From Burkholderiales bacterium (GTDB lineage Bacteria; Pseudomonadota; Gammaproteobacteria; Burkholderiales; SG8-39), in assembly GCA_041558415.1 (NCBI GenBank), contig JBFFEY010000007.1, positions 19,342-83,341 of the forward strand: a DNA stretch of 64,000 bases, in the 5' to 3' direction. Shown here piece after piece: positions 15,643 through 45,394 of the stretch. Numbering within the stretch: position 1 is the first letter of the stretch; each line of letters begins with the position of its first letter. Position numbers and translations under genes: made by a program. Below the pieces are notes generated by a model. It was not told the DNA's origin. It ran no database searches and was given only the letters and a program-made list of their open reading frames with translations.

Positions 15643-16323
15643 TCAGGCCGTCTGCGCCACGAGCGCCCGTACCCGCCGCTCGAGCGCCTCGAGACGCCGA
15701 TCGTGGATGCCAAGCTCGCGCAGGTGGGCGGCCGTATCGAACAGGTAGTCCGCGCAGCAGCCGAGCGGTCCCGCGCCGGTGGCGAGGTACTGCGCGGTGG
15801 CGTCCTCGCCCAGCTCGCGCACGTAGCGCTCATGCGCGCGGTTCACCGCGAAGGCGACGGCGTGCTCGAGGCCGCGCGGCGTGCGCAGCGCGACCCACAC
15901 CGGGCGGTAGGCCATGGTGAGCATCTCGCGGCGCCACACCACGTCGAGCTCGGTGGCGGCATGCTTCGGATGCAGGCGGAAGCCGACACCCTGGCAGCTG
16001 CCGCCGTGCTCCAGCGAAAGCATCAGCCCGGGCTTCTCCGGGCTGCCGCGCCCAGCGCGCGCCCACAGGCAGAACTGGCGGTGGTAGCCGTGCACGCGCG
16101 CGGTGCGCCGCTCGGCGAAATGGAACGCCGGGTTCCACATCAACGAGCCGTAGCCGAACACCCAGATGCGTTCCGGGTGCGGCGCCCGCGCGATGACCTC
16201 ATGGATCTGTCGGTGGCGCTCCTCGGCCGTCATGAAGCGCGTGCCGGCGCCGAGCAGCGCGCGCGCCGAGTCGTGCAGCGCGCCGCTCAGGATGCTTTCG
16301 CGCGTCAGCTTGAGCGAGGTCAT
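15643..16323 (-). CDS. chaC: Glutathione-specific gamma-glutamylcyclotransferase (ChaC family)
   Basis: WVFGYGSLMW, GRGSPEKPGL, RREM motifs. Confidence 0.88.
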   Translation of the reverse strand: MTSLKLTRESILSGALHDSARALLGAGTRFMTAEERHRQIHEVIARAPHPERIWVFGYGSLMWNPAFHFAERRTARVHGYHRQFCLWARAGRGSPEKPGLMLSLEHGGSCQGVGFRLHPKHAATELDVVWRREMLTMAYRPVWVALRTPRGLEHAVAFAVNRAHERYVRELGEDATAQYLATGAGPLGCCADYLFDTAAHLRELGIHDRRLEALERRVRALVAQTA

Positions 16324-16349
16324 GACGGTGGGGATGCGCCCGCGTTCGC

Positions 16350-16706
16350 TCAGTCGTCCATCAGCTTGCGCAGCGTGTGGCGCCGGTTGCGCGTGTAGGG
16401 CCGCACCTCGCTCGGCCAGCGCCCGGCGTCGACCGCCTTGGCCCAGGCTTCGCTCGTCAGCACATCGGGACTCTCAAGCTCGTAGATCGCGCTGTACTTC
16501 GGCTCGCCTTCGGCGACGATGCTCTTCACCTCGCCGCCGATGAACATCTTCAGCGGCACGAGCACGTTGCGTGTCGCCGAGACCACGCCGGGCACCTTGG
16601 AAATGAGCGGGATGTGCTCGGTGTCGTAGACCTCGTTGAAGATCGCCTCCCGCTCGGGGTCGACGTCCATGCTCGCGATGAAGACGTACTTCGCTTTTCC
16701 GGCCAT
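16350..16706 (-). CDS. Conserved hypothetical dimeric alpha/beta barrel protein (EthD/DUF4286-like)
   Basis: FNEVYDTEHIP..VPGV and Y.AIYELESP pattern; RBS CAGGAG. Confidence 0.6.
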   Translation of the reverse strand: MAGKAKYVFIASMDVDPEREAIFNEVYDTEHIPLISKVPGVVSATRNVLVPLKMFIGGEVKSIVAEGEPKYSAIYELESPDVLTSEAWAKAVDAGRWPSEVRPYTRNRRHTLRKLMDD

Positions 16707-16794
16707 GCGCGCTCTCCTGTGCGTGTTCCGGCCGCGAGTCTACCGGTTGCCGCCCTCCGTTAGAATCGGCGCGTCGAAACCGGAGGAGCGTGCG

Positions 16795-17850
16795 ATGCGC
16801 GGCGTGGTGTTTCTCGGCGAGCGCGAGCTCGAGATTCGCGAATTCCCGGACCCGACGCCCGGGCCGGGCGAGGTGGTGCTCGAAATGAAGGCTTCGGGCA
16901 TGTGCGGCAGCGATCTGCATGCCTACCGCGCGGCGCGCAGCGGCGCGGGCATGGCCGGTGCGCTCGGCCTGGGCGGCAAGGGCGGCCCGGTGATCGCCGG
17001 CCACGAGCCCTGCGGCGTGGTCGCCGCGCGCGGCCCGGGCGTCACGGAAGCCGAGGCACCGATCGGTGCGCGCATGATGGACCACCATTACAGCGGCTGC
17101 GGCGTCTGCCCGCACTGCCGCGTCGGCTGGTCGCAGCTCTGCGGCAAGGGCATCACCGTCTACGGGGTAACGGGCCACGGCGGTCACGCGCAGTACCTCA
17201 AGGTGCCGGCGCGCACGCTGGTGCCGCTGCCCGAGGAACTTTCCTTTGAAGAGGGCGCGGCGGTGTCCTGCGGCACGGGTACGGCCTACGGCGCGCTGCG
17301 CCGCATGCAGACCTGCGGGCGTCACACGCTCGCCGTCTTCGGCCAGGGCCCGGTCGGCCTGTCGGCGGTACTGCTCGGCACGGCGATGGGCGCGCGCGTG
17401 ATCGCGATCGACATCGGCGAGGCGCGGCTCGCGCTGGCGAAGGACTTCGGCGCCGACGCGACGATCAACTCGAAGAACACCGATCCGGTGAAGGCGCTCA
17501 AGGACCTGACGCGCGGCGAAGGCGTCGACCTGGCGCTCGATTGCAGCGGCGCGGCGGAGGCGCGTGCGGCGACGGTGCGCAGCACGAAGACCTGGGGCAC
17601 GGCCTGCTTCGTCGGCGAAGGCGGCAACGTCACCCTGGAGGTGAGTCCGGACATGCTGCGTCGGCAAATCACCCTCATCGGCTCCTGGACCTTCTCCAGC
17701 GTCGGCCAGGGCGAGTGTGCGCGCTTCGTCGCCGACCGCAGGATCCCGCTCGCCAAGCTGATCACGCACCGCTTCAAGCTCGATCAGGCCGAGGAGGCCT
17801 ACCGGCTGTTCGACACCCAGACCACCGGCAAGGGCGTGTTCGTCTTCTAA
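16795..17850 (+). CDS. Zinc-dependent alcohol dehydrogenase (MDR family)
   Basis: CGSD, GHE, CGVCPHC..C structural Zn site, GQGPVG; RBS GGAGGAG before ATG 16795. Confidence 0.92.
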   Translation: MRGVVFLGERELEIREFPDPTPGPGEVVLEMKASGMCGSDLHAYRAARSGAGMAGALGLGGKGGPVIAGHEPCGVVAARGPGVTEAEAPIGARMMDHHYSGCGVCPHCRVGWSQLCGKGITVYGVTGHGGHAQYLKVPARTLVPLPEELSFEEGAAVSCGTGTAYGALRRMQTCGRHTLAVFGQGPVGLSAVLLGTAMGARVIAIDIGEARLALAKDFGADATINSKNTDPVKALKDLTRGEGVDLALDCSGAAEARAATVRSTKTWGTACFVGEGGNVTLEVSPDMLRRQITLIGSWTFSSVGQGECARFVADRRIPLAKLITHRFKLDQAEEAYRLFDTQTTGKGVFVF

Positions 17851-17870
17851 GCGAGCGCCCCGGGGGTCGC

Positions 17871-17912
17871 TTGATGTAGCTCAAGTGCCCCGGCAGAGCG
17901 CTCTGGCAGCGT
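17871..17912 (+). promoter_or_regulatory. FNR-type class II promoter: TTGAT-GTAG-CTCAA plus extended -10 TG-n-CAGCGT
   Basis: 9/10 match to TTGAT-N4-ATCAA; centre 17877.5 is -41.5 from the start site (17919) predicted from the -10; RBS GGGAGG then ATG 17937. Confidence 0.65.
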
Positions 17913-17936
17913 GGGCCCTCGGCACCGGGAGGGTTC

Positions 17937-19589
17937 ATGCTCGCAGGCTGCACGCCCTGGCCTGAAACGTTCGCCCGTCGTTACCGCGCGCGCGGCTACT
18001 GGGAAGGCATCACGATCCCAGGGGCACTTGCCGCCGCGGCGGCCGTGCGCCCCGACAAGATTGCGCTGGTGCACGGCGCCGAGCGCGTCAGCTACGCCCA
18101 GCTCATGGAACGCATCGAGCGCCTCGCCGCGCGCTTCGTGCACGCCGGGCTCAGGCCGCTCGACCGCGTGGTGCTGCAGCTGCCAAACGTTCCCGAGTTC
18201 GTCACCGCCTACTTCGCGCTGATCCGCGCCGGCGCCATCCCGGTCATGGCGCTGCGCGCGCACCGCCACACCGAGGTGAAGCATTTCATCACCTCGGCCG
18301 GCGCCGTGGGCTACGTCATCCCCGACCGTTTGCGCGAGTTCGACTACCGGGCCATGGCCGAGGAAATGCGCGGCGTCTGCCCGACCCTCAAGCAGGTGTT
18401 CGTCGCCGGCGAACCGCTCGCGGGACAGACGGCGCTCGGCGAACTGCTCGAGGCACCGATGGCCGCCGCCGATGCACGCGCAACGCTCGCCGCCGTCGAT
18501 CCCGACCCAGGCGAAGTGGCGCTGATGCTGCTCTCGGGCGGCACCACCTCGCTTTCCAAGCTGATCCCGCGCACGCACGACGACTATGTCTACAACGCCA
18601 AGCAGTGCGGGCGACTGGCCGCCTTCGACGAGGACACGGTGCTGATGCCAATCCTGCCGCTGGCGCACAACTACAACCTCGCCTCGCCCGGCATGATGGC
18701 GGCGCTCTACGCGGGCGGCACCGTGGTGCTGGCGCCGTCTGGCGACGCGGAGACCGTGTTTGCGCTCGTCGAGCGCGAGCGCGTCTCGGTCATTCCGGCC
18801 GCGGTGCCGCTCATCTCGGCCTGGCTCAACTCGCAGGTGCCCGAGCAGCACGACCTCTCCTCGCTGCGCGTGGTGCAGAACGGCGGCGCGCGCCTCGCGC
18901 CCGAGCTGCGCGCGCGGCTGCAAGAGCGCCTCGGCTGCCGCGCGCAGGAGATCTACGGTACGGCGGAAGGGCTCATCAGCATGGTGCGCCTCGACGCCGA
19001 CGAGGAAGCGGTGCTGGAGAGCTCCGGCCTGCCGATCTGCGACGACGACGAGATCCGCGTGCTCGGCGACGACGACCGCGAGCTGCCCGACGGCACGCCG
19101 GGCGAGCTCTGCGTGCGCGGGCCCTACACCATCTGCGGCTATTACAATGCGCCGGAAAAGAACCGCGAGGCGTTCACGCGCGACGGCTTCTACCGCATGG
19201 GCGACATCGTGCGCAAGCGCGGGCGGCAGCTCTACACCGAGGGCCGGCGCAAGGACATCATCAACCGCGGCGGCGAGAAGATCAGCTGCGACGAGGTCGA
19301 GAACTACATCTTCGGCCACCCGAAGGTGAAGTCCGTCACCCTGGTAGCGATGCCCGACGAGACTTTCGGCGAGAAGGCCTGCGCCTTCGTCATCCCGAAG
19401 CCGGGCGAGACGCTCGGTTTCGACGAACTGATCGGTTTTCTGCGAGCCAAGCGCATCGCCAGCTTCAAGCTGCCCGAGCGGCTGGAAATCGTAGAAGAAT
19501 TCCCCACCAGCCCGGTCGGCAAGATCCTCAAGCGCGAGCTGCGCGAGCGCATCGCCGCGCAGATCGAGAGGGAGAAAGGACGCGCATGA
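17937..19589 (+). CDS. DhbE/EntE-like aryl acid adenylating enzyme (hydroxybenzoate-AMP/CoA ligase)
   Basis: LSGGTTSLSKLIPRTHDDY, PLAHNYNLASPG, YGTAEG, RGPYTI, GFYRMGD, INRGGEKI, A10 Lys in VGKILK. Confidence 0.88.
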   Translation: MLAGCTPWPETFARRYRARGYWEGITIPGALAAAAAVRPDKIALVHGAERVSYAQLMERIERLAARFVHAGLRPLDRVVLQLPNVPEFVTAYFALIRAGAIPVMALRAHRHTEVKHFITSAGAVGYVIPDRLREFDYRAMAEEMRGVCPTLKQVFVAGEPLAGQTALGELLEAPMAAADARATLAAVDPDPGEVALMLLSGGTTSLSKLIPRTHDDYVYNAKQCGRLAAFDEDTVLMPILPLAHNYNLASPGMMAALYAGGTVVLAPSGDAETVFALVERERVSVIPAAVPLISAWLNSQVPEQHDLSSLRVVQNGGARLAPELRARLQERLGCRAQEIYGTAEGLISMVRLDADEEAVLESSGLPICDDDEIRVLGDDDRELPDGTPGELCVRGPYTICGYYNAPEKNREAFTRDGFYRMGDIVRKRGRQLYTEGRRKDIINRGGEKISCDEVENYIFGHPKVKSVTLVAMPDETFGEKACAFVIPKPGETLGFDELIGFLRAKRIASFKLPERLEIVEEFPTSPVGKILKRELRERIAAQIEREKGRA

Positions 19590-21559
19590 ACGCACGCCCC
19601 GGCGAGGCGAAACTGCCTCATCTGTTCAGGCCCGGCAAGCTCGGGCGCTATGCCACCCGGAACATGATCAAGTACGGCGCCTGCTGCGTGTCGAACTATA
19701 ACGATCGGGACGGCACCATCACGCCGCGGGAACTCGCGCGCACGCGGGTGATCGCCAACACCGGCTGCGGCATCATCACCAACCAGGGCGCCTACCCGGA
19801 TGCGAAGGGCGAGGGCAAGTCGTATTTCCGCATGGTCGCGCTCTACGACGACAGGTTCCTGCCGCAGTTCGAGACCATCGCCGGCTACATCCACGAGGCC
19901 GGCGCGGTGGCGATCCAGCAGATCCTGCACGCCGGGCGCTACGGCGGCATCGACCTCGGCTACTGCGTGCAGCCTTCGGTGGTGCCGCAGACGCTGCCGC
20001 ACTTCCGCCCGCCGCGCGAAATGTCGAAGGACGACATCCGGCGCTGCATCCGCGAGCATGTCGATGCCTCGAAGCGCGCCGTCAAGGCCGGCTTCGACGG
20101 CGTCGAGGTGACGAGCTTCATGGGCTACCTGCTCGCCTCGTTCAATTCCAGATTTACCAACCAGCGCACGGACGCGTACGGCGGCTCGCTCGAGAACCGC
20201 GGCCGCTTCATGCGCGAGCTGATCGACGCGGTGAAGCAGGCCCTGCCCGAGCACCCCTTCATCATCCGCTTGAACGGCGCCGAGCTGATGGACCAGTGGG
20301 GCGGCAACAGCGAGGACGAGTGCTTCGAGCTGATGCGGCAGGCCGCCGGCTGCGGCGTCGACATGATCAGCGTCACGGTCGGCTGGCAGGAGGCCCCCGA
20401 GTCGTCGATCGGCCGCGACGTCGCGCCCGGGTACTGGAACTACCTGGCTGCACGCGCCAAGCGCGAATGCCCGAACACCCCCATTGCCTTCGGCAACCGG
20501 CTGCCGGACCCGCGCATGGCGAACGAATGCCTGGCGAAGCGCGAGTTCGACTACTGGGAAGTGTGCCGGCCGATGCTCGCCGACCCCGAGCTGGTGCACA
20601 AGGCGGCGGAGGACCGCCTCGACGAGGTGCGCCGCTGCATCGGCTCGCTCAACTGCCTGTCGCGCGTGTTCCGCGACCTGCCCTACAGCTGCACCATGAA
20701 CCCGGCGCTCGGCCACGAGGTCGAGCCCGAGTACGCGGTCACGCCGGCGGCGGTAAAGAAGAAAATTATGGTGATCGGCGCGGGGCCCGCTGGCATGGAG
20801 TTCGCCATTACGGCGCGCCGGCGCGGGCACGACGTCACGGTCTACGACCGCGCCGACCGCATCGGCGGCAACCTGCTCGGCTATGCGAACTGGGACCTGG
20901 CGCGGCCGGACGACCTGCTCTCGGTGGTGCGGCACTACGAGGTGATGGCCACCAAGCTCGGCGTCGAGATGAAGCTCGGTACCGAGGCGAACGCGAAGCT
21001 CATGCGCTCGGTGCTTCATCAGTACGACGTCTGCGTGGTCGCCGCCGGCGCGCGCATCGACCTTGCCGCCTACGACGGCGTACCGGGCCGCGAACGCCTG
21101 GTCGACGCGCTCGAGGTCGCCGCAGGGCGGATCGAACCCGGCAAGCGCGTGGTAGTCGTCGGTGCCGGAAAGATCGGGCTGGTGGTCGCCGAGTTCCTGA
21201 AGAAGAACCGCAGCGAGGTGACGCTGGTCGAGGCGGACAAGCGCATCGCCGGGGACGTCATGCCGACCTTCAAGTGGCGCCACACGGCCTGGGTCGACGA
21301 GCTCGAGATCCCCGTGCTCACCTCGACGCGCCTCCTGCGCGTGACGGCCGATGCGGCGGTGGTCGTCGACGCGAAAGGCGTGGAAACTACCCTGCCTGCC
21401 GACACCGTGATCGCCGCCGCGCCACGCGTCGCCAACCAGACGCTGTTCGCCGAGTTCGAGTGGATGGTCGATGAGCTGCACGGTTGCGGCGACGCGCTGA
21501 TGCCGCGCGGCATGGATGCCGCGATCCACGAGGGCTACCGGCTCGGGGTGCGCATCTGA
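19586..21559 (+). CDS. OYE/FadH-family FMN-FeS-FAD oxidoreductase (657 aa)
   Basis: QILHAGRY, AGFDGVE, RTDAYGGSLENRGRF, Cys cluster, IGAGPAG and VGAGKIG dinucleotide folds; ATGA overlap with ligase. Confidence 0.9.
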   Translation: MNARPGEAKLPHLFRPGKLGRYATRNMIKYGACCVSNYNDRDGTITPRELARTRVIANTGCGIITNQGAYPDAKGEGKSYFRMVALYDDRFLPQFETIAGYIHEAGAVAIQQILHAGRYGGIDLGYCVQPSVVPQTLPHFRPPREMSKDDIRRCIREHVDASKRAVKAGFDGVEVTSFMGYLLASFNSRFTNQRTDAYGGSLENRGRFMRELIDAVKQALPEHPFIIRLNGAELMDQWGGNSEDECFELMRQAAGCGVDMISVTVGWQEAPESSIGRDVAPGYWNYLAARAKRECPNTPIAFGNRLPDPRMANECLAKREFDYWEVCRPMLADPELVHKAAEDRLDEVRRCIGSLNCLSRVFRDLPYSCTMNPALGHEVEPEYAVTPAAVKKKIMVIGAGPAGMEFAITARRRGHDVTVYDRADRIGGNLLGYANWDLARPDDLLSVVRHYEVMATKLGVEMKLGTEANAKLMRSVLHQYDVCVVAAGARIDLAAYDGVPGRERLVDALEVAAGRIEPGKRVVVVGAGKIGLVVAEFLKKNRSEVTLVEADKRIAGDVMPTFKWRHTAWVDELEIPVLTSTRLLRVTADAAVVVDAKGVETTLPADTVIAAAPRVANQTLFAEFEWMVDELHGCGDALMPRGMDAAIHEGYRLGVRI

Positions 21560-22005
21560 TGGCCGCGCTGCCGCAGATCGCCCTCGACTGGCAGCCGGTG
21601 CTCGATGCGCACGTCGGGCTGTTCGAGCCGCTCGCGCCCGGCGCGAGCGTCGCGCTCGTGCCGCGCTGGCGCAGCGATGCGCAAGGCCAGCGCCGCGCCA
21701 ACGTCATGCCGAAGACCCAGCCGGTGCCGATGCATCTCTGGCTGCGCGAACCTCAGGCGATGCGCGTGCGCGAGAGCATCTTCACCGGCCTCGCGTCGCT
21801 CGGGTCGGACCTGCTGTTCATCGCCGAGGACGGCGCCCTCGACGCCGCGCTCGCGCACGAACGGCCGCTTAGCGAGCTCAAGCGCCTGCTGCGCCGCAAC
21901 CGGATGCTCTTCATGGTGCTGCGCACGCGCGACGAGCTGCGCGAGCGCGGCTGGACCGAGTTTCTCGAGGCGCTCGGGCTGCCGTTCCTCGGCACCTGCC
22001 GTTGA
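21559..22005 (+). CDS. Hypothetical protein (148 aa) ending in LPFLGTCR
   Basis: TGATG overlap with the OYE stop; protein-like composition; no family recognised. Confidence 0.7.
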   Translation: MAALPQIALDWQPVLDAHVGLFEPLAPGASVALVPRWRSDAQGQRRANVMPKTQPVPMHLWLREPQAMRVRESIFTGLASLGSDLLFIAEDGALDAALAHERPLSELKRLLRRNRMLFMVLRTRDELRERGWTEFLEALGLPFLGTCR

Positions 22006-22011
22006 GGCGCG

Positions 22012-22209
22012 ATGATCTTCACCAACCCCGCGGGCGCACCCGAGCTGGCCTGCGAAGAATGCGGCTGCCGCTGGTTCGACCGCATGACCGACTGCTGCTA
22101 CGAGTGCGGCGCGCCGGTCAGCGCGGCGGCGATGGACGAGTATCAGCGCGCGCTGGCGGCATTTGCCGCGCGCCGCGAGTCGGATAGCCCCGACCCGGCT
22201 TTAGGCTGA
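22012..22209 (+). CDS. Small Cys-rich protein (rubredoxin/zinc-ribbon-like, 65 aa)
   Basis: CEECGC and CCYECG motifs; GAGG RBS; starts 6 nt after the previous stop. Confidence 0.72.
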   Translation: MIFTNPAGAPELACEECGCRWFDRMTDCCYECGAPVSAAAMDEYQRALAAFAARRESDSPDPALG

Positions 22210-22248
22210 CCCCTGACTAAAAAGCGCCGGACGATCTCACGCGCGACG

Positions 22249-22512
22249 CTACTTCAGAAAAGAAATCTCCGGCTTGCCGACCACGCCGGCCTCCTTCATG
22301 ACCTTGCGCAGGTTCGCACTGGACGTGAATGCCTTTGCCTTCGACAGGCTCGCAGCCTGGAACAGGATCAGCACGTCCTTCGGGTTCCTGACGCTCCGCA
22401 GCAGCGCTTTTTGCCTAAGCGCAGCTTTTCTGCGCGCAGGCGCGTGCCCGTCATAGGCACGCTTCCATTTGGCGAAGTCCTTGACCTTGTGACGAACGAG
22501 TAGGAATGCCAT
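22249..22512 (-). CDS. Small conserved alpha/beta barrel protein (cyclase/DUF3764-like)
   Basis: VRHKVKDFAKWK..YD and MKEAGVVGKP pattern; strong RBS AAGGAGG. Confidence 0.7.
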   Translation of the reverse strand: MAFLLVRHKVKDFAKWKRAYDGHAPARRKAALRQKALLRSVRNPKDVLILFQAASLSKAKAFTSSANLRKVMKEAGVVGKPEISFLK

Positions 22513-22600
22513 TGGGTCCTCCTTGTTGGCGTTGACCTGCGCGACCATCATAACGCCATGCGGCGCTGTGCAGGGCAGCCTCCGTGCTGAAGCGCCCCCC

Positions 22601-23491
22601 TCAGTCCGCCAACTTGCCGTCGGCTGTGAGCGGATACCAGCGTGGCGTCTCCCCCTGCGCGAACGCGACGATGTGATTCGGCGGTACCGCGCGCCACTTC
22701 GCGTCGCCGGTCAGGCGCTCCGAGGACACCACCACGGCCTCGCCCGTTTCTTCCGGATGGCGCGCGTGGAACTCCTGCGAGGTCGTCGCGTAGATGTGGT
22801 CGTGCAGGGTGTAGAGCGAATCGGGCGGCGCCGTGGGGTTGCTGGTAAAGCGCGACGCCGCGGCGTGCACGCCGTCCGACACGGCGACGTTTAGCGCGCT
22901 CGGCGCGCCCTCACCGTGCGCCTTGACCACGGCCAGCACGCGCGCGAGCGTCGCCGCGAGGCGCTCGGCAAGCCGGCGCACGCCGTCAACCTGTTCGCCG
23001 GGCGGCTCGCCGTGCTTGAGCAGCTCGTCGACGAAGATGGCGAACATGTGCTCGCTGTCGGTGTCGCCGCGAACGACGTTGTAGGCCTCGTCCGAAAGGT
23101 CGGCGAGCAGCTGCCGCCGCAGGCGCGGATAGGCGCCGATCGCGCCGTTGTGCATCAGCAGGTAGCGGCCGTGCTGGAAAGGATGGCAGTTCGCCTGGTG
23201 CACCGCGCTGCCCGCGGTCGCCGCGCGCACGTGCGCCAGCACGCAGGGGCTCGCCACCACGCGCGTGATGCTCTGCAGATTGCGGTTGTTCCACGCCGGC
23301 GAGATGGAATGGAACACCGCCGGCTCGTCCGACAGGCGCGGCGCGTACCAGCCGACGCCGAAGCCGTCACCGTTCAGCGGCTCGTCGCGCTCGGCGGCGT
23401 GAAAGCTCTGGTGGATCAGCGAGTGCGTCGGCTCGATCAACAGCGTGCTCAGCCGGATCGACGGGCCGAGGTAAAGGGTGAAGCGGCACAT
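22601..23491 (-). CDS. Class II glutamine amidotransferase (EgtC/DUG3-like Ntn hydrolase)
   Basis: Start MCRF exposes Cys2; NGDGFGVGWY, PAWN, AHVRAAT, NCHPF, HNG, GDTDSE, SSERL. Confidence 0.9.
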   Translation of the reverse strand: MCRFTLYLGPSIRLSTLLIEPTHSLIHQSFHAAERDEPLNGDGFGVGWYAPRLSDEPAVFHSISPAWNNRNLQSITRVVASPCVLAHVRAATAGSAVHQANCHPFQHGRYLLMHNGAIGAYPRLRRQLLADLSDEAYNVVRGDTDSEHMFAIFVDELLKHGEPPGEQVDGVRRLAERLAATLARVLAVVKAHGEGAPSALNVAVSDGVHAAASRFTSNPTAPPDSLYTLHDHIYATTSQEFHARHPEETGEAVVVSSERLTGDAKWRAVPPNHIVAFAQGETPRWYPLTADGKLAD

Positions 23492-24691: not shown

Positions 24692-25734
24692 CGCGCCGCG
24701 AGCAGCGCGCGCAGATCCGCGGCGTGCTGCTCGGGGTAGAGCATGGCGAACTTCTCGCCGAGCAGCAGCTGCAGGTAGGCAGTGTCGGAGTTGTGCAGCT
24801 GCGGATGCAGGTAGAAGCGCGGCAGCAAGCGCGCGGTGAGCCGATGCCGACCCGAGCGCTCGCCTTCCGCGTCGGGCATGAGCGTCAGGTTGAAGCTCCA
24901 CATTCCCATCGCCGCGTAGGCGGCGAGCACGCGGCACAGGCTGCCTGCGAACGCCTCGAGCGCCGCGTCGTCGCAGGCACTGACCGTGGCGTAGTCGACG
25001 AACATGGCCTGCGCGTCGCCCAGCATGCCGCTCGGACCGAAGGGCACCCACCAGGCGATGCCGCCCGCCTCCTCCAGCCAGCGTTCGCCGCCGCGCTCGG
25101 CCTCGTGCAGCGCCACGGGGTAGGCCCGCCCATGGGCGGCGAGCCAGCGCGCCTCCGCCTCCAGCTCGCGCCGCAGCTGGTTGCCCGGCGTGTCGGTGAC
25201 GATCACCTGCATGTGCGGATGCACCTGCGATGCCCCCGAAGGCGGCATGTAGTTCCAGGTGACGATGCCGAAGGCCTCGCCTCCCTCGACGAGCGGCGCC
25301 GCGGTGACGATGAAATCGCGCGCCAGCTTCAACGCGTCGGCGACAATCGCCGGCGGCATGGCATCCATGGCGAGGAAATGCGCATGCGCCATCGACACGA
25401 TCGCCGACACGTCGTCGTAGGGGAACAGGTTCGGCACCAGCAGCGCCTCGCCGCGCCGCAGCCGTCCCTCGGGCAGCAGCTCGGCGGGATAGCGCGGCGT
25501 CACGCGCTCGACGCTGTCGGGGCAGAACGGGCAGTTGGCGCGCGTGCGCTCGGCGAGCACCGACAGGTCGGGCCGCTCGCGCTTCGGGAATGCAAAGTGG
25601 CAGATGCGCGACGAATCGCCGGTCAGCGGGTCGTAGCGCACCTCGCTCTCGATCTCGCTGAGCGCGAAGTCGCGCCGCGGATCATGGATGCGCGCGCGCT
25701 TGCGCGTCGCGCGGAATTCGAGCGGCGCGCTCAA
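24688..25734 (-). CDS. GalT/HIT-superfamily nucleotidyltransferase-like protein
   Basis: RYDPLTG, CPFCP, VPNLFPY, GASQVHPHMQ (HxHxQ); TTG start overlapping the previous TGA (TTGA). Confidence 0.8.
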   Translation of the reverse strand: MSAPLEFRATRKRARIHDPRRDFALSEIESEVRYDPLTGDSSRICHFAFPKRERPDLSVLAERTRANCPFCPDSVERVTPRYPAELLPEGRLRRGEALLVPNLFPYDDVSAIVSMAHAHFLAMDAMPPAIVADALKLARDFIVTAAPLVEGGEAFGIVTWNYMPPSGASQVHPHMQVIVTDTPGNQLRRELEAEARWLAAHGRAYPVALHEAERGGERWLEEAGGIAWWVPFGPSGMLGDAQAMFVDYATVSACDDAALEAFAGSLCRVLAAYAAMGMWSFNLTLMPDAEGERSGRHRLTARLLPRFYLHPQLHNSDTAYLQLLLGEKFAMLYPEQHAADLRALLAAR

Positions 25735-26936
25735 GCCGGCGGCCCCGACGCTTCCTCGCCCGGCAGCGCCTTGCCCGTGCGGTACACCGTCCCGGTGAGG
25801 CTCGCCACCAGCACGCCGTCCTCGCGCCGCACTTCCATGCGGTAGACGCCCAGCTTGCGGGTGCGCGACACCTCCTCGGCGCGCGCCGTCAGCCGTTCGC
25901 CGGATTGCACCGCCACCGAGAAGGTCATGTGCGAGTCGATCAGCGCCGCGACCGAGCCGTAGGAATTGCAGGCCAGGCCGAGCGCGGTGTCGGCGAGCGA
26001 AAAGATCGCTCCGCCGTGACAGCTGCCCCAGAAGTTGATGTGCTCCGGGCGCACGCGCATCGTCACGCTCGCCCTGCCCTCGCCCGCCTCGAGCAGCTCG
26101 AGCCCGAGGTGGCGCGCGAAGGCATCGCGTGCCATCAGCCGTTCGAGCAGCGCTGCCGCGTCCGATGCGGGCGGCGGGGTGCCCTGCGGCCGCGGCCTGC
26201 GGCCGCGCACTTCGAGCCAGTCGACGAGTGCCGCGACGCCTTCGCCCGTCGTCGCCACCGTTTTCAGCACTGGCGCCTGCGCCGCGGCGCCCTGGCGCAG
26301 CGCGAGCATCGCCAGCAGCTCGCGCTCGGTGCGCGCCGCGTCGGGAAGATCGGCCTTGTTGACGACGAACGCATCTGCGATCTCGAGGATGCCGGCCTTG
26401 ATCGCCTGCACGTCGTCGCCCAGGCCTGGCGGGCACACCACCAGGCGATGCGCGGCAACCTTCGCGATCTCGACCTCAGACTGGCCGGCGCCGACCGTCT
26501 CCACCAGCACGTCGTCGAAGCCGGCGCCGTCGAGCACGTCGACCACCTGCGCCGCGGTGCGCGACAGGCCGCCGAGATGGCCGCGCGCGGCGAGCGAGCG
26601 GATGAATACCGCCTCGTGGCCCTGCATCTCGCCCATGCGCACGCGGTCGCCGAGCACCGCACCGCCGGAGACCGGGCTCGACGGATCGACGGCGATCACC
26701 GCGACGCGCCGGCCGCGGCCGACCAGCTCCCGGACCATGGCGTTGACCAGCGTCGATTTGCCCGCCCCCGGCGGGCCGGTGATGCCGATGACCTGCGCGT
26801 GGCCGAGGTGTGCCGCGAGCGCGGCGCGGATGGAGGCCGCCTCGTGGGTCTGGTTCTCCACCGCGGTGATCGCGCGTGCCAGCGCGCGGCGGTCACCGCC
26901 GCGGATGCGTTCGGCCAGCGTGACGGGCGCGTTCAT
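25731..26936 (-). CDS. meaB: MeaB/ArgK-family GTPase fused to C-terminal PaaI-type hotdog thioesterase
   Basis: GITGPPGAGKST, AVDPSSP, LGDRVRM, ETVGAGQSE, VNKAD; then linker and SCHGGAIFSLAD hotdog motif in one frame. Confidence 0.88.
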   Translation of the reverse strand: MNAPVTLAERIRGGDRRALARAITAVENQTHEAASIRAALAAHLGHAQVIGITGPPGAGKSTLVNAMVRELVGRGRRVAVIAVDPSSPVSGGAVLGDRVRMGEMQGHEAVFIRSLAARGHLGGLSRTAAQVVDVLDGAGFDDVLVETVGAGQSEVEIAKVAAHRLVVCPPGLGDDVQAIKAGILEIADAFVVNKADLPDAARTERELLAMLALRQGAAAQAPVLKTVATTGEGVAALVDWLEVRGRRPRPQGTPPPASDAAALLERLMARDAFARHLGLELLEAGEGRASVTMRVRPEHINFWGSCHGGAIFSLADTALGLACNSYGSVAALIDSHMTFSVAVQSGERLTARAEEVSRTRKLGVYRMEVRREDGVLVASLTGTVYRTGKALPGEEASGPPA

Positions 26937-26946
26937 CGGGCGCGGG

Positions 26947-28629
26947 TCAGACGACCGCCAGCGGCTGGCCGAAGCCGAGCTCGCGGCGCAGACAGGCGCA
27001 GATCTCGCCGTGCGTGGCGCCGGCCTCGGCCGCGCCGACGACGCGCGCCATGACGTTTTCGCTGCCCTGCGCGGCGCGCGCCAGCGCATCGAGCGCCTGC
27101 TGCACCGCGCTGCCCGAGCGCCGCGCCTTGTATTCGGCGAGCCGCGCGACCTGCGCCGCAATGCGCTCGCGCTGCGGGTACTCGAGCACGGTGTAGGCGT
27201 CGGGATCCTCCTCGGCCTGGTAGGCGTTGACGCCGACCACAGTCTGCTCACCCGACTCGACGCGTTTCTGGAAGGCGAGCGCCGAATCGCCGATCATGCG
27301 CTGCACCAGACCCTGCTCGACCGCGCGGTACATGCCGCCGGCGGCGTCGATCTCCGCGATGATCGATTCGATTTTCTCCTGCATCTGGTCGGTGAGCGCC
27401 TCGAGGTAGTACGAGCCGCCGAGCGGATCGATCACCTCAGTGAGCTGCGCCTCCTCGCGCAGCACGTTCTGCGTCGCCACCGCGATGCGCGCCGCCTCCT
27501 CCGTCGGCACCGACAGCACCTCGTCGTAGCTGTCCGTATGCAGCGACTGCAGGCCACCGAAAATGCCGGCCATTGCCTGCACCGCGACGCGCGCGATGTT
27601 GTTGAGCGGCTGCTGCCGCGTGAGGTCGACGCCCGAGGTCTGGCCGTGGAACTTGAAGCGCCAGGCTTTCGGGTCCTTCGCGCCGAAGCGTTCGCGCGCG
27701 AGCTTGGCCCAGATGCGCCGCCCGGCACGGAACTTGGCAATCTCCTCGAAAAAGCTCACCGAGATGTCGAAGAAGAACGTGAAGCGCGGCAGGAAGGCGT
27801 CGGGCGCCATGCCGCGCGCGCGGCAGTCCTCCGCGTACTGAATCGCCGAGGCGAGCGTGAAGGCCATCGCCTCGGCGGGCGTCGCGCCCGCCTGCTGCAT
27901 GTGCTGGCCAACCACCGACAGCGGGTTCCAGCCGGGGACCTCGGCGTTGCAGAAGGCAATGTGGTCGACCAGCACGCGCCGCGCGCCCTGCAGCGCGAGG
28001 CGGAAGAACATGTGGTTGGCGACGAAATGCGAGATGCAGTCGGACTGGTTGGACGTGCCGGTGATGCTGCGCCAGGCGATCCCGCGGCGCCGCGCGACGG
28101 CGAGCAGCAGCGCGAGCAGCGTGAAGGGCGACGGGTCGTTCAGCGCGCAGGAAATGCGGTCGAGCGGCACGTCAGCGAGTGCGCGGTCCATGTCCTCTAC
28201 GCTGTTGACCACCGTGCCGCAGGTGCCGAGCAGTTCCTCCGGCACCTCGTCGGCGTCATAGCCGCGAAACACCGAGTTGCAGGGAATCAGCGAGACCGCG
28301 CTGGTGCCGTGCGCGAGCAATGTCTTGAGGCGCGCGTTGTAGTCCTCCGGCACGCCGAGACCGATCAGCTGGCGCTGCGTCCAGCTGCGCCCGCGGTGCA
28401 TCGAGGGATAGATGCCGCGCGTGTTCGGATACTCGCCCGGAAAACCGAGCGTCTCGAGATAGCGCGTGCCGCCCCAGTCCTGCGGCGTGTAGAGCGGCTT
28501 CACGGCGATGCCGGAGCGGTTCACCGCCGGCCGCGCGGCGCCGGGGCTGGCGTCGAACGCCGCCTGCCAGCGGCGCTCGGCCTGCTCGAGCTCGGTCGCG
28601 GCGAGCGGCTTGGCGACGGGTTTGTTCAT
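26947..28629 (-). CDS. B12-dependent acyl-CoA mutase large subunit, pivalyl-CoA mutase type
   Basis: [40 protein letters not shown]; specificity positions Leu88 (TQRQLIG) and Asn205 (HFVANH). Confidence 0.88.
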
Positions 28630-41149: not shown

Positions 41150-42172
41150 TCAGGCGCGCTGCGCGGCCGGCGCGGTTTCGCAGGCCGATGGCGCGAAGCG
41201 GCTCTTTTCCTTGGCCGACCAGTCGGGCGTCTCCACGCCGTGCCGCGCCGCGGTCATCTCCGCAAGGATCGCCACCGCGATCTCGGGCGGCGTCTTGGAG
41301 CCGATGTACAGCCCCACCGGGCCGTGCAGGCGGGCGATCTCGGCCTCCGACAGGTCGAACTCGGCGAGGCGCGTGCGCCGCGCGTCGTTGTTCTTCTTCG
41401 AGCCGATCGCACCGACGTAGAAGGCGGGCGACTTCAGCGCCTCGAGCAGCGCGAGGTCGTCGATCTTCGGGTCGTGGGTCAGCGCCACCACCGCGGTATG
41501 CGCATCGACGTTCATCGTGCCGAGCACGTCGTCCGGCATGCCGCGATCGAGCGGCACGCCCTCCATCGTCCAGCCGGCCGCGTATTCCTCGCGCGGATCG
41601 ATGACCACGACGTGGTAGTCGAGCATCTTTGCCATTGCCGCGAGATAGTGCGTGAGCTGCCCGGCGCCGATCAGGAACAGGCGCCAGCGCGGGCCGTGCA
41701 CCGTGTAGAGCACGGCGCCGTCGAACTCGACCACGTCCTGCCACTTGCCGGGCTCGAGCGTCGCTTCGCCGCTCGCCATGTCGAGCCGGCGGCGCACCAG
41801 CTGCTGCTTGCCGATGGTCTCGAGCAGCTCGCCCAGCCGGCTGCGCTCGGTGACCGGCTCGAGCACCACCTGCAGCGTGCCGCCGCAGGGCAGCCCCCAG
41901 CGCGTCGCTTCCTCGTTGGTCACGCCGTAGGTGATGAGCTGCGGGCGCTCGGCGGCCACCGCCCTGGCGCGCACCTTCTCGATCAGGTCGTCCTCGACGC
42001 AGCCGCCCGACACCGAGCCGATCACCAGGCCGTCGTCGCGGATCACGACCATCGCGCCCACCGGCCGCGGCGCCGAACCCCAGGTCTTGACGATGGTGCC
42101 GAGCGTCGCGCCCCGGCCCTCTTTGCGCCACGCCTCCGCGCTGCGCAGTACTTCGATATCGACGCTGTCCAT
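41150..42172 (-). CDS. XdhC/CoxI family Moco insertion chaperone
   Basis: WGSAPRPVG, GSVSGGCVE, GLPCGG, THDPKIDD, PVGL.IGSKTPPEIA. Confidence 0.93.
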   Translation of the reverse strand: MDSVDIEVLRSAEAWRKEGRGATLGTIVKTWGSAPRPVGAMVVIRDDGLVIGSVSGGCVEDDLIEKVRARAVAAERPQLITYGVTNEEATRWGLPCGGTLQVVLEPVTERSRLGELLETIGKQQLVRRRLDMASGEATLEPGKWQDVVEFDGAVLYTVHGPRWRLFLIGAGQLTHYLAAMAKMLDYHVVVIDPREEYAAGWTMEGVPLDRGMPDDVLGTMNVDAHTAVVALTHDPKIDDLALLEALKSPAFYVGAIGSKKNNDARRTRLAEFDLSEAEIARLHGPVGLYIGSKTPPEIAVAILAEMTAARHGVETPDWSAKEKSRFAPSACETAPAAQRA

Positions 42173-42534
42173 GGTTCGCCTCGCTTGCTGCGTTCCGATA
42201 AGGGGAAGTTTACGCCCCTCGTAATACTTGGGATGTTGGCACGGGTTTCAAGGCGCCTTGGCCGTTATCGCGTTATCCGGGGTCAAGCCGACGGGGGGCG
42301 CCGGGCGCGAAACAGGGGCGGTTTGCGCGCCGCAGCATGCGCGCACCGCGTTGCCCGCCCGGCGCCCCTTCGCTACGATACTCGCCCGGGCGTTCAATCG
42401 CTCGCCACGTCCGCGCAGCAGCCGTGCTGCACGCCACCGCGCGGGTGCCGGCGCGTCACGTTCGAGACAGCAAGCGACCCGAGTGTGCGCCGCATGGCGC
42501 GCACGAACCCGCATTCTGTGGAGGAGGAGGAGAA

Positions 42535-43014
42535 ATGTCAGTCAAGGTTTCCATGAAAGTGAACGGCAAGGCCGTTTCCGGAGAGATCGAGGAACGCACC
42601 TTGCTGGTCACGTTCATTCGCGAGCACTTGCGCATGACCGGCACCCACGTCGGCTGTGACACCGCGCAGTGCGGCGCCTGCACCGTCGCGATGAACGGCG
42701 CCGTGGTGAAGTCCTGCTCGATGCTCGCCATGCAGGCCGAGGGCACCGACATCACCACCATCGAAGGCGTCGCCGCGGCCGACGGCACGCTGCACCCCAT
42801 GCAGGCGGCGTTCAAGGAGCACCACGGCCTGCAGTGCGGCTTCTGCACGCCGGGCATGGTGATGAATGCGATCGATTTCGCCAAGAAGCATCCGGGCGCC
42901 GGCGAGCAGGAAGTGCGCGAGGCGCTCGAAGGCAACCTGTGCCGCTGCACGGGCTACCACAACATCGTCAAGGCGATCATGGCCGGCTCCAAGGCCATGG
43001 CCGGCGCAAAGTGA
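42535..43014 (+). CDS. coxS: Molybdenum hydroxylase 2Fe-2S subunit (form II CoxS-like)
   Basis: [28 protein letters not shown]. Confidence 0.92.
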
Positions 43015-43024
43015 GGAGGCCATC

Positions 43025-45376
43025 ATGAGCGCATCTCTCATCGGCGCGCGCGTAGAGCGCAAAGAGGATTACCGCTTCCTAACCGGCGCTGGCAAATACG
43101 TCGACGACTTAATTCGTCCTGGCCAAGTCCATGCGCACTTCGTGCGTTCGCCGCACGCGCACGCCAAAGTCAAGTCTATCGATCCCAAGAACGCCCTGAA
43201 GTCGCCGGGCGTCGTCGCCATTTTCGTTGGCGACGATTTGGCCGCTGATGGCGTCGGCACAGTGCCGTGCGGCTTTGCGCCTGACGGTGGGCCTATTAAG
43301 GAACCGCCGCGTCCGGCTCTTGCTCAGGGCAAAGTGCGGTTTGTCGGGGACCTCGTCGCAATCGTCATCGCCGAGTCCCTGGACCAGGCGAAGGATGCCG
43401 CGGAAAAGCTGGTGGTCGACTATGAGGTCCTACCCGTCGCGGTGACCATGGAGGAAGCGGTCCGTAAGGGTGCTGCGCAGCTGTTCGATGACGTCCCGAA
43501 TAATGTCTGCTTCGACTGGGGCATCGGTGACAAGGCCGCGACGGATGAGGCATTCAAGAAAGCTGCCCACGTCGTCAAGCTCGATCTCGTCAACAATCGG
43601 AAGATCCCGAACGCGATCGAGCCGCGCGCCGTGGTCAGCGAGCATGACGCCGGGACCGGGGCATACACCGTCTACACCACGACGCAGAATCCTCACGTCA
43701 TCCGGCTGCTCATGGGCGCATTCGTTCTCAAGATCCCAGAGCACAAGCTGCGCGTAGTATCGCCCGACGTGGGCGGCGGATTCGGGTCGAAGATTCCGCA
43801 CTACCCGGAGGAGGTAGTCGTCACCTGGGCCTCGAAGAAAGTCGGAAGGCCAGTCAAGTGGACCGCGGAACGTTCCGAGTCGTTCCTGTCCGACACGCAC
43901 GGAAGGGACCACGTTACGCACGCGGAACTCGCACTCGATGCGAACGGGAAGTTTCTCGGATTGCGAGTCGATACGATGGCCAACCTGGGCGCATATCTAT
44001 CCACGTTCGGCCCGTTGATCCCGACGTACTTGTACGGCCCCGTCATGGCCGGTCAGTATGCGACCCCTGCGGTGCGCGTCGATGTGAAGGCAGTTTTCAC
44101 GAACACCGCGCCGGTCGACGCCGAGCGCGGGGCAGGCCGCCCGGAAGCCACCTACCTCGTCGAACGCATTGTAAGCAAGGCTGCGCGGCAGCTCGGAATC
44201 GATTCCATCGAATTGCGGCGTCGCAACCTGATCCCGCCGGATGCCTTCCCGTATCAAACGCCCGTGGTGGTCCAGTACGACAGCGGCAACTATGCAGCCG
44301 TTCTGGACGCGGCGCTGAAGCTCGCGGATCACTCCGGATATGCCAAGCGCCGCAAGGACGCCGAAGCTCGCGGCAAGTTGTACGGCATCGGGATAGCCGC
44401 CTACATCGAGGCCTGCGGGCTCGCGCCCTCAAACGTCGCGGGGCTGATCGGCGCTCGTGCGGGATTGTTCGAGGCTGCCGAAGTTCGCATGCACCCGACG
44501 GGGACGGCCACCGTGTTTACCGGATCTCATGCGCACGGCCAGGGTCACGAGACGACATTTGCGCAAATCGTGGCGGGCAAGCTTGGGATTCCGGTCGAGA
44601 ACGTCGAAGTCGTGCACGGCGACACGGACCGGGTGCCGTTCGGCATGGGAACGTACGGCTCGCGTTCCCTGGCAGTCGGCGGATCGGCGATTGCCAAGGC
44701 GGTGGACAAGATCATTGAGAAGGGCAAAAAGATCGCGGCCCACGCGCTCGAGGCGGCGGAAGCGGATATCGAATTTGTTGACGGGACATTCAAGGTCAAG
44801 GGAACGGACAAGAAAGTGGGTATCGGGGACGTCACATTGTCTGCCTATGTGCCGCACAAGTACCCGCTCGACAAACTCGAGCCTGGACTCGACGAGAGTG
44901 CCTTCTACGACCCCCTGAACTTCACGTTCCCGGCCGGCTGCCATATCTGCGAGGTGGAGGTCGATCCCGAAACCGGCGCGATCAAGGTCGCCAAGTGGAC
45001 CGCTGTAGACGACTTCGGAAAAGTGATCAATCCGATGATTGTGGAGGGGCAGGTGCATGGTGGCGTTGCCCACGGAGTCGGACAGGCGATGCTGGAAGCC
45101 TGCGTGTACGACAAATCCGGGCAACTCCTCACGGGATCGATGGCCGATTACGCGTTGCCCCGGGCGTCGGATCTTCCCAGCATCGAATTGGGCCTAACCG
45201 AAACCCCCTGCCCGCACAATCCGCTCGGCGTAAAAGGCTGCGGCGAGGCCGGTGCCATCGCCGCACCCCCGGCATTCATCAATGCGGTGACCGACGCGCT
45301 CGGCGTTGAACACATCGAAATGCCCGCGACGCCTGAGAACGTCTGGCGGACGCTGGCAGCCAAGAAAGCAGCCTAG
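43025..45376 (+). CDS. coxL: Molybdenum hydroxylase large subunit (form II CoxL-like), variant motif AERGAGR
   Basis: [29 protein letters not shown]; S-L-M order. Confidence 0.88.
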
Positions 45377-45394
45377 AAGGAACGGGAGAACATC

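Follow-up and report, generated by a model that had tools for sequence, protein, structure and literature searches.

An OYE-type flavoenzyme with two small candidate partner proteins in an apparently FNR-controlled operon of a Burkholderiales bacterium

The anaerobic benzoyl-CoA pathway is a textbook route of aromatic degradation. To our knowledge, all characterised enzymes of the old yellow enzyme (OYE) type that act on aryl-CoA or dienoyl-CoA esters have been described as single polypeptides, and we know of no physiological partner for any of them. Here we analyse a four-gene operon in a 64-kb stretch (the window) of contig C7 of a Burkholderiales bacterium, whose genome (3.54 Mb in 113 contigs, 96% complete, 69.5% G+C) has uncultured betaproteobacterial metagenome-assembled genomes (MAGs) as its nearest named relatives. 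The operon encodes a DhbE-like aryl-acid ligase; a three-domain flavoenzyme, hereafter the OYE; and two small proteins of no named family, p148 and p65 (Table 1). Judged from gene neighbourhoods, the conserved unit is the OYE with p148 and p65, and the ligase is a lineage-specific addition. We would as soon believe as doubt that this is a low-oxygen operon of a facultatively anaerobic, benzoyl-CoA-degrading betaproteobacterium, the core of which, that is, the OYE, p148, and p65, would act on a cyclic dienoyl-CoA.

The OYE contains the domains PF00724 (Oxidored_FMN, 165.4 bits, cut-off 27) and PF07992 (Pyr_redox_2, 89.3 bits, cut-off 26.1), and reaches no equivalog in the NCBIfam scan. Its closest solved relative is 2-naphthoyl-CoA reductase (NCR, 6qkg; 397.7 bits, E 1e-117, residues 12-657), one of the type III aryl-CoA reductases, with the same three-domain order; the pairwise scores are 365.7 bits for the mycofactocin OYE_2, 295.3 for BaiCD, 283.1 for BilR, and 243.5 for FadH of E. 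coli. Tyr82 and Tyr197 of NCR, according to PMC6502838 an active-site residue and the proton donor, respectively, are both aligned to Tyr in the OYE, whereas His284 and Tyr320, which by the same source contact the CoA cysteamine and the thioester carbonyl, correspond to Gln268 and Asn304. The second Rossmann motif of NCR reads GGNEIS, while the window's OYE keeps GxGxxG; loop 131-142 of the OYE falls in a gap of the alignment. The iron-sulfur site differs as well. Instead of the four-Cys [4Fe-4S] motif C-x2-C-x2/3-C-x11/12-C of the FadH/NCR type, the OYE has C351-x2-S354-x2-C357-x11-C369, with Ser at the second-Cys position and one residue fewer than in NCR. This CIGSLNC...C arrangement is invariant in all 14 full-length orthologues (mean column identity 86%). 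The label "atypical flavo-iron-sulfur enzyme", given to the protein from sequence in the original prediction, was apt. Finally, NCR and 2-phenanthroyl-CoA reductase are reported to be monomers (PMC6502838, PMC12093976), whereas the OYE has two small partner genes.

Homologues of the OYE number 929 proteins at E ≤ 1e-100; the best 120 (74-92% identical) include proteins from Thauera aromatica, Aromatoleum species, and A. aromaticum EbN1 ("NADH oxidase NOXB-2"), with both K172 and T. chlorobenzoica in the Thauera cluster. Identity to the window's OYE is 75-76% for the Thauera and EbN1 homologues, which have the same CIGSLNC motif; the protein of strain K172 is AVR89458.1 (75.7%). An aromatising cyclohexa-1,5-diene-1-carbonyl-CoA oxidase, a member of the OYE family with FMN, FAD, and Fe-S and of about the OYE's size, has reportedly been purified from the same strain. 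We know of no ligase, p148, or p65 from the work on that oxidase. Given a 76%-identical protein in K172, the description of the system as undescribed is doubtful as far as the OYE is concerned.

Two further known systems share features with the locus. FadH resembles the OYE in domain architecture, in the acyl-CoA class of its substrate, and in Asn at the position of NCR Tyr320, and differs in an alignment that ends at residue 540, a full four-Cys motif, and another gene context and regulation. Enzymes of the salicylyl-CoA 5-hydroxylase/2-aminobenzoyl-CoA monooxygenase-reductase type (NF006101) likewise direct an OYE domain at an ortho-substituted benzoyl-CoA made by a dedicated ligase, and their C-terminal half is matched by the window's OYE at 126.9 bits; they are, however, aerobic, O2-dependent fusions, and the window's operon has no monooxygenase. 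A fused monooxygenase and OYE gene of this type, adjoining a benzoate-CoA ligase family gene, is found elsewhere in the window's genome (G000 C47:4835-8665), and would be an aerobic counterpart for ortho-substituted benzoates.

The OYE, p148, and p65 as a conserved unit

A collection with one genome per species yields 17 related loci, 16 of which hold the operon. The OYE, p148, and p65 go together in all 16, p65 being seen in 14 and the contig ending 12 nt past p148 in the other two; the ligase adjoins this module in 12. In the wider survey of 317 genomes of the window's family (related genomes, hence non-independent samples; OYE orthologues taken at E ≤ 1e-150, 72-100% identity), p148 is present in 48 genomes, the OYE in 43, and both in 42, always on the same contig. 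Six genomes have p148 only, two of these matches being fragments, and the single genome with the OYE only is 59% complete. The metagenome loci are the best 80 of 234 confirmed ones, belong to one distant p148 subfamily, and derive from a profile of 10 closer sequences. Here, p65 follows p148 in 77 loci and the remaining three end within 19 nt; all five p65 exceptions, in genome and metagenome loci combined, are therefore cut by a contig end. The OYE (>65% identity) is seen in 39 of the 80, and in 30 of the 41 loci without it, the upstream flank is shorter than 2.5 kb. Its identity to the window's OYE is 72-94% throughout, and 72-85% in the metagenome loci. A DhbE-like ligase stands beside the module in two of these 80 loci. 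Thus, the co-conservation of four genes that had been proposed for the operon stands within the window's lineage, and does not extend to the ligase elsewhere.

In two loci the module appears to be decayed. A remnant (L025, 8001-8236) consists of the last 22 p148 codons and an intact p65 downstream of a TfoX-like open reading frame (ORF); the ligase and the OYE are gone, while the AHSA1-GST fusion gene, which L013 and L015 have 5' of the ligase, has been kept. In L018 (5998-7980), the OYE matches come in overlapping pieces of 48-78% identity beside intact p148 and p65, which suggests a frameshifted or decayed OYE copy in that MAG.

No match to p148 is found in Pfam or NCBIfam at E ≤ 0.1, nor in PDB profiles at E ≤ 10. 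Its AlphaFold2 model (pLDDT 87.5) is closest to SCP2 proteins (e.g., 1wfr, 1ikt), which make up the top seven Foldseek PDB matches (probability 0.84-1.0; best match E 1.1e-4, TM-score 0.43, root-mean-square deviation 10.8); the nearest named Atlas cluster is also SCP2 (score 0.83), which is a lead only. Differences from SCP2 are the lack of a Pfam SCP2 (PF02036) match, TM-scores of 0.33-0.43, a C-terminus ending in GxCR, and predicted binding to an enzyme rather than action alone. The C-terminus LGLPFLG(T/A)CR is near-invariant in the close family, and more than 90% of the distant members retain its penultimate Cys. A profile search against 1.84 billion representatives gives 112 clusters at E ≤ 0.001 and 64 at E ≤ 1e-10, with members in Chloroflexota MAGs, Thermofilum MAGs, and Aromatoleum sp.; full-length members stand alone (about 125-177 aa), shorter matches are fragments, and the source name of every member is "hypothetical protein". 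Tandem p148 paralogues, about 30% identical, occur directly 5' of the p148 that precedes p65 in L021 (5924-6397), L022 (7487-7963), and about 15 metagenome loci (e.g., L091, L102, L107, L124).

The smaller protein, p65, has five invariant Cys residues (C14, C17, C19, C29, C32), and its AlphaFold2 model (pLDDT 87.4) consists of short strands around Cys knuckles and a long C-terminal helix. It has no match in Pfam or NCBIfam and no Foldseek PDB match at E ≤ 0.001; the weak ones are small zinc fingers and zinc ribbons. Neither small protein thus matches a known family, as had been noticed from the sequence, and the electron-transfer role suggested for p65 finds no support: a rubredoxin or ferredoxin identity was rejected for want of a family match or a significant fold match. 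NinF, the nearest named Atlas cluster of p65 (0.90), is at chance level.

We also performed one controlled prediction of the complex of the OYE, p148, p65, and a 4Fe-4S cluster, with three controls. The ipSAE score of the OYE-p148 pair is 0.64 (runs 0.64, 0.67, 0.45), as compared with 0.02 for the best control, and swapping out p148 abolishes the complex score. Of 80 solved complexes, 58 reach this mark, as do 2 of 110 mismatched pairs; given the use of our own alignments and the presence of a ligand, these frequencies apply only approximately in the present case. At least 51% of contacts are common to the runs, and the partner pLDDT is no lower than 84. Confident contacts involve residues 117-124 and 140-143 of p148, and, in the OYE, loop 131-142, residues 190, 193, 237-239, and 270-271 at the barrel mouth, and residues 563-572. 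The loop is invariant in the clade and corresponds to a gap in the alignments with NCR and FadH. Residues 563-572 are aligned to NCR 575-584, hence inside the helix 572-585 that, according to PMC6502838, lines the CoA cavity of NCR. Since the predicted contacts fall there, the most conserved surfaces of the two proteins would meet at the substrate entrance, and the model supports, but does not demonstrate, docking of p148 at the acyl-CoA entrance of the OYE. For p148, this agrees with the accessory role originally proposed for the small proteins.

The confident contact list of the model includes no p65 residue, and we draw no verdict on p65 and the OYE from it. Cys147 of p148 is not among the named confident contacts, residues not named there being uncertain. 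The idea that p148 Cys147 or p65 Cys19 might supply the missing cluster ligand in trans is neither favoured nor rejected by the model, in which the named contacts are located at the barrel mouth (OYE 125-271, 553-572) and not at the linker 351-369. Searches of the open literature on the oxidase, on NoxB of EbN1, and on SCP2 with OYE or benzoyl-CoA turned up no such partner proteins.

Operon layout and FNR-type control

Table 1. Features of the operon and its flanks, in coordinates of the window
Feature	Position	Strand	Basis
FNR/FixK-type box TTGATGTAGCTCAA, near-palindrome with intact core TTGA-N6-TCAA	17871-17884	+	Sequence, conservation
Candidate extended -10 TGGCAGCGT, starting 19 nt past the box	17904-17912	+	Inferred
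Aryl-acid adenylating ligase, 550 aa	17937-19589	+	ORF list, translation, raw sequence
OYE/FadH/NCR-type three-domain flavoenzyme (OYE), 657 aa	19586-21559	+	ORF list, domains
p148, 148 aa, unnamed family, SCP2-like fold predicted	21559-22005	+	ORF list, AlphaFold2 model
p65, 65 aa, zinc-ribbon-like	22012-22209	+	ORF list, AlphaFold2 model
Two terminator-like hairpins, 3' of p65	22404-22422 and 22442-22462	+	Consensus matches only

The ORF list and the raw sequence bear out the tight coupling claimed for the four genes, all on the same strand: the ligase and the OYE overlap by ATGA at 19586-19589, the OYE and p148 by TGATG at 21557-21561, and p148 and p65 are separated by 6 nt (22006-22011). 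The gene 3' of the operon encodes a convergent class II glutamine amidotransferase. The upstream neighbour, a Zn-dehydrogenase gene at about 16801-17850, ends 5' of the FNR-type box, so that the 86-nt spacer with the box is the sole room for a promoter. This dehydrogenase was rejected as Had (79.7 bits against the TIGR03201 cut-off of 338.65), and also as a member of the operon, since it ends upstream of the box and is kept only in the four closest loci.

The box TTGATGTAGCTCAA matches nine of the ten bases of TTGAT-N4-ATCAA and is the sole match with at most one mismatch in the window. By itself it is not significant, being near chance in 64 kb (expectation 0.26 per window; at least one match in 23 of 100 shuffles); only comparison gives it weight. 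In all 16 related genome loci, the first operon gene is preceded by a box with no more than two mismatches (one mismatch in 12 loci, two in four); eight of these loci are ligase-first, four have the box in a divergent ligase/OYE spacer, and four are OYE-first without the ligase. The background frequency of TTGA-N6-TCAA is 0.051 per kb in 661 kb of loci.

The promoter arithmetic of the original prediction is correct: the predicted start, 17919, lies 41.5 nt from the box centre at 17877.5. The CAGCGT hexamer of the candidate extended -10 starts 22 nt past the box, and the block CTCTGGCAGC(G/T)T is kept in the window and in all eight ligase-first loci, with the hexamer CAGCGT or CAGCTT. OYE-first and other loci have -10-like TAGGAT, TAGCAT, or TACCAT 22-23 nt after the box. 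A distance of 22-23 nt from box to -10 is the spacing of class II FNR promoters. A consensus promoter scan of 16300-22700 finds no sigma-70-like site, as expected for an activator-dependent promoter. The sigma-54 reading of TGGCAG at 17904 was rejected, as the aligned loci have no GC element at the proper spacing.

FNR itself is encoded on contig C8 (234.4 bits, NCBIfam cut-off 228), and the window's genome contains 22 exact TTGAT-N4-[ACG]TCAA boxes. Intergenic boxes precede ccoN of the cbb3 oxidase (801.7 bits, cut-off 583), a gene for a Crp/Fnr-family regulator, a hemerythrin/RIC-like gene, genes for CBS-domain proteins, and a gene for the alpha subunit of a 2-oxoacid:acceptor oxidoreductase, divergent from an Oah paralogue. 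On contig C21 (G000 C21:44470-46993), the FNR-type box TTGATCTGCCTCAA at 46273 is flanked by a 2-oxoacid:acceptor oxidoreductase alpha gene and by a second Oah-like gene, which is truncated by the contig end; this arrangement suggests that the benzoyl-CoA pathway of the window's organism is itself under FNR-type control.

From these comparisons, the operon is apparently under low-oxygen (FNR/FixK-type) control and would be induced under anoxia. The original proposal of an FNR box therefore holds in so far as the site is a selected one of FNR/FixK type, within a regulon that includes ccoN and a Crp/Fnr-family gene; it does not hold beyond the lineage, none of the 13 OYE loci of other lineages having an FNR box within 150 bp. 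As far as these loci go, the box is specific to the window's lineage. Four of the 13 box-less loci (L088, L125, L119, L124) carry a TGTATACAGTAT palindrome instead; it takes the form of a palindrome-like TGTATACAGTAT(A/C)C after a TTGAC -35-like element, within 80 nt upstream of the OYE start, and might serve some other regulator, perhaps a substrate-specific one, as its operator in lineages without the FNR box.

Of the 24 runs listed, 20 contain DNA nearly identical to the operon region (positions 17700-22300), and they stem from 13 studies (sediment, soil, freshwater, seawater). Six of these runs are RNA libraries; the other 14 are DNA runs, in which the region is almost unchanged (share 0.93-0.97). 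Because of this spread over studies, the window's organism or a very close strain may be environmentally common. Contigs of four RNA runs (three studies) cover all four genes and bridge the junctions (18966-20408, 21362-21800, 21678-22091); as they also cover the flanks, they may stem from DNA, and prove neither a single transcript nor transcription. Depth in the RNA runs is low at 17782-18028 in three of the four, with the flanks covered, and is not usable for ranking the genes.

Two other parts of the window have counterparts next to p148 and p65 elsewhere. About 20 kb downstream of the operon, at 41852-46192, lies a molybdenum enzyme of the xanthine-dehydrogenase family ([2Fe-2S] subunit, about 42535-42978; large subunit, about 43040-45355; FAD subunit, about 45407-46168), beside an XdhC-like piece at 41852-42244. 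In loci of the L109 type, the enzyme adjoining p148-p65 shares about 65% identity with this one in the small and large subunits. A MeaB-like GTPase ORF (25731-28629 region) adjoins a methylmalonyl-CoA-mutase-like ORF at 26947-28629; the former shares 60% identity in its GTPase part with the MeaB half of a fusion in L109, MeaB-XdhC, and has an extra C-terminal extension. MeaB homologues flank p148-p65 in several metagenome loci too.

Substrate of the OYE and competing explanations

In relatives, the module is embedded among genes of the benzoyl-CoA pathway. The gene order in L088, L107, and L125 is GltD-like Fe-S flavoprotein, Dch-like hydratase, Had (544.2 bits, cut-off 338.65), Oah (612.7 bits, cut-off 464.45), OYE, p148 (single or duplicated), and p65; acyl-CoA dehydrogenases come next, in L107 after a short-chain dehydrogenase/reductase (SDR). 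In L124 it is DhbE-like ligase, monooxygenase, OYE, benzoate-CoA ligase family protein, RidA, two copies of p148, and p65; the monooxygenase is a stand-alone protein whose match lies in the N-terminal half of the model for salicylyl-CoA 5-hydroxylase. The window's genome, judged by family matches, holds a class I benzoyl-CoA reductase-like set: at C63:10696-17158, two BcrAD-type and two HGD-D-type genes stand by a Dch-like gene and Oah, the latter above the cut-off. The search for a benzoyl-CoA reductase that had been recommended is thus positive, and together with the dch-had-oah neighbours it supports the proposed link to anaerobic aromatic metabolism.

The ligase has the Pfam domains AMP-binding and AMP-binding_C. 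Its best family is DhbE (TIGR02275, 560.6 bits, below the cut-off of 723.55); it also stays below the cut-off of NF008192 (499.7 bits against 783), and it aligns over its full length with DhbE/EntE and salicylate-AMP ligases (1md9, 6e8o, 5wm2, 7tyb; E 1e-135 to 1e-162), the best solved relatives being the salicylate-AMP ligase 5wm2 (E 4.8e-162) and two 2,3-dihydroxybenzoate-AMP ligases, among them DhbE 1md9. At the position of DhbE Ser240, within the HNY...SPG motif, the window's ligase has Ser, as do the two dihydroxybenzoate enzymes, whereas the two salicylate enzymes have Cys. It differs from all four in the pocket stretch, YGTAEGLISM as against (F/L)GMAEGL(V/L/I)(N/C)Y, and from DhbE/EntE in having no carrier or nonribosomal peptide synthetase (NRPS) partner and in sharing an FNR-type operon with a CoA-thioester enzyme. 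The substrate type proposed earlier, a 2-hydroxy-aromatic acid, is retained as to the ortho-hydroxy group; the Ser240 equivalent points to 2,3-dihydroxybenzoate and not to salicylate.

That the ligase opens the synthesis of an aryl-capped siderophore or amide tailored by the other genes is hardly credible: DhbE is the best-scoring family and the Ser240 equivalent is that of the 2,3-dihydroxybenzoate enzymes, but the score is below the DhbE cut-off, domain scans find no carrier protein, isochorismatase, or NRPS in the operon and no carrier or NRPS in its flanks, the 96%-complete genome has no NRPS condensation domain (PF00668), and its two isochorismatase-family matches are found on other contigs, in ORFs of 200 and 217 aa. 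A siderophore role had been judged unlikely from the outset, and the lack of a condensation domain makes it more so.

The original prediction further assumed that the OYE acts on the thioester made by the ligase. This coupling is unsupported: with the ligase at two of the 80 metagenome loci, and the OYE nonetheless 72-94% identical throughout, the OYE substrate is unlikely to be the product of the ligase. As the OYE is unchanged while the ligase comes and goes, and is embedded among benzoyl-CoA genes, its substrate is more likely a central cyclic CoA thioester of the benzoyl-CoA pathway, most likely the 1,5-dienoyl-CoA; substrate and direction of the reaction are both inferred.

On the favoured explanation, the OYE would be a flavoenzyme of the NCR/FadH type, highly conserved and with an unusual iron-sulfur site of three Cys residues, acting most probably on cyclohexa-1,5-diene-1-carbonyl-CoA, as does the aromatising dienoyl-CoA oxidase of Thauera aromatica. 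The dienoyl-CoA would give up electrons to FMN, from where they would reach an acceptor by way of the cluster and FAD. p148 would dock on the mouth of the acyl-CoA cavity, its C-terminal motif meeting the clade-invariant OYE loop; p65, a five-Cys zinc-ribbon protein, would always be translated directly behind p148; and the two might gate or modulate substrate access. The window's lineage would have recruited the DhbE-like ligase into the low-oxygen transcription unit, where it could feed an ortho-hydroxylated aromatic acid (of the 2,3-dihydroxybenzoate type by the Ser240 equivalent) into the pathway as a thioester.

Several observations weigh against this explanation. Eleven metagenome loci with 2.5-7 kb of upstream flank still have no OYE; their neighbours are thioesterase and LuxR-type genes, or a tandem p148 followed by SDR and acyl-CoA dehydrogenase genes, the tandem loci being divergent from a MeaB-XdhC fusion and a xanthine-dehydrogenase-family molybdenum enzyme. 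Because of these loci, p148-p65 is not strictly an accessory of the OYE. The p148 of the Aromatoleum type is most similar to the group from loci without the OYE, and the SCP2 resemblance of p148 is modest, with high root-mean-square deviation. In the OYE, the two NCR residues that contact the thioester end of CoA are replaced, and the second Rossmann GxGxxG, intact in the window, is broken in several orthologues, which makes NAD(P)H use and the electron partner uncertain. The box is confined to one lineage, and the RNA-library contigs may be of DNA origin. The Thauera dienoyl-CoA oxidase is said to be a monomer without small subunits. AVR89458.1 of strain K172 may be that oxidase, an assumption that serves as a lead and not as a result; one genome may hold several FadH-like proteins (the window's has three long ones, i.e., two besides the OYE).

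Among the alternatives, a doubtful one takes the trio as an ATP-independent (type III-like) dearomatising reductase for the ortho-substituted benzoyl-CoA supplied by the ligase (salicylyl-, 2,3-dihydroxybenzoyl-, or 2-aminobenzoyl-CoA): FMN would donate a hydride, and the product, once tautomerised to a 6-oxo- or 6-imino-cyclohexene-carbonyl-CoA, would pass directly to Oah. The nearest solved relative of the OYE is indeed an aryl-CoA reductase, the proton-donor Tyr is kept, and some orthologues share with NCR a degenerate second Rossmann motif; the substitution of NCR His284 and Tyr320 points the other way. The ligase family activates ortho-hydroxy aryl acids, and the gene lies beside the OYE in 12 of the 16 genome loci, translationally coupled to it in the window; in the metagenome loci, the OYE remains 72-85% identical where the ligase is almost always missing, which argues for one common, ligase-independent substrate. 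The order in L124, ligase, monooxygenase like the N-terminal half of salicylyl-CoA 5-hydroxylase, OYE, would suit this alternative, as would the RidA gene near p148 (by Pfam in L124; by clustering in L101, L110, L118, L119, and L125), which fits hydrolysis of an enamine or imine. The genome, however, already has a class I reductase set. Class I reductases accept ortho-substituted analogues. If the alternative were true, it would identify the orphan reductive steps on ortho-substituted benzoyl-CoA that were reportedly measured in denitrifiers in the 1990s.

We consider it unlikely that p148 and p65 form an independent pair, e.g., an acyl-CoA- or lipid-binding sensor or a chaperone with a thiol/zinc switch, which only accompanies genes for the catabolism of CoA thioesters, and that the OYE works alone. 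The 11 long-flank loci without the OYE, where the pair stands by thioesterase, LuxR-type, SDR, acyl-CoA dehydrogenase, and molybdenum hydroxylase genes, would be explained in this way; tandem p148 paralogues are common; and the characterised type III reductases are monomers, according to PMC12093976 and PMC6502838. Against this stand the 42 of 42 family genomes that, having both the OYE and p148, have them on one contig, the complex prediction (0.64 versus 0.02 in the control), and the coincidence of the predicted contact surfaces with the most conserved parts of both proteins.

An ordinary fatty-acid 2,4-dienoyl-CoA reductase, accompanied by a fatty- or aryl-acid CoA ligase and linked to aromatic compounds by coincidence only, is very improbable. 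The source annotation "2,4-dienoyl-CoA reductase (NADPH2)" on homologues, the fold and domain order, and Asn at the NCR Tyr320 position all agree with FadH; yet the OYE is nearer NCR (398 bits) than FadH (244 bits), its cluster motif is unlike both, the dch-had-oah, benzoate-CoA ligase family, and RidA genes lie beside it in relatives, it has dedicated partner proteins and FNR-type control, and two other long FadH-like genes are available in the genome.

Implications

More speculatively, and with the expectation that this may well prove wrong, the trio might represent a novel type of enzyme complex in anaerobic aromatic metabolism, with a cluster short of one Cys ligand, an SCP2-like cap with a Cys-Arg tail, and a five-Cys zinc-ribbon partner, the cap being a redox gate or a specificity subunit. 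In the former case, it would be a thiol/zinc gate that opens the OYE to dienoyl-CoA only when oxygen intrudes; in the latter, a subunit that sets the specificity of the ATP-independent reductase that has long been sought for ortho-substituted benzoyl-CoA (salicylyl-, 2-aminobenzoyl-CoA). The idea is testable in model strains, because T. aromatica and A. aromaticum carry homologues.

Returning to the explanation that we favour, in which the trio would act on a cyclic dienoyl-CoA at low oxygen, what this analysis adds is a tightly conserved OYE clade with an altered cluster site, with members in Thauera and Aromatoleum, that is accompanied by two small proteins of no named family. The predicted cover of p148 over the substrate entrance leads to a hypothesis on gating, specificity, or oxygen response that concerns cultivable strains, and one sediment lineage appears to have brought both the module and a ligase for ortho-hydroxy aryl acids under FNR-type control.

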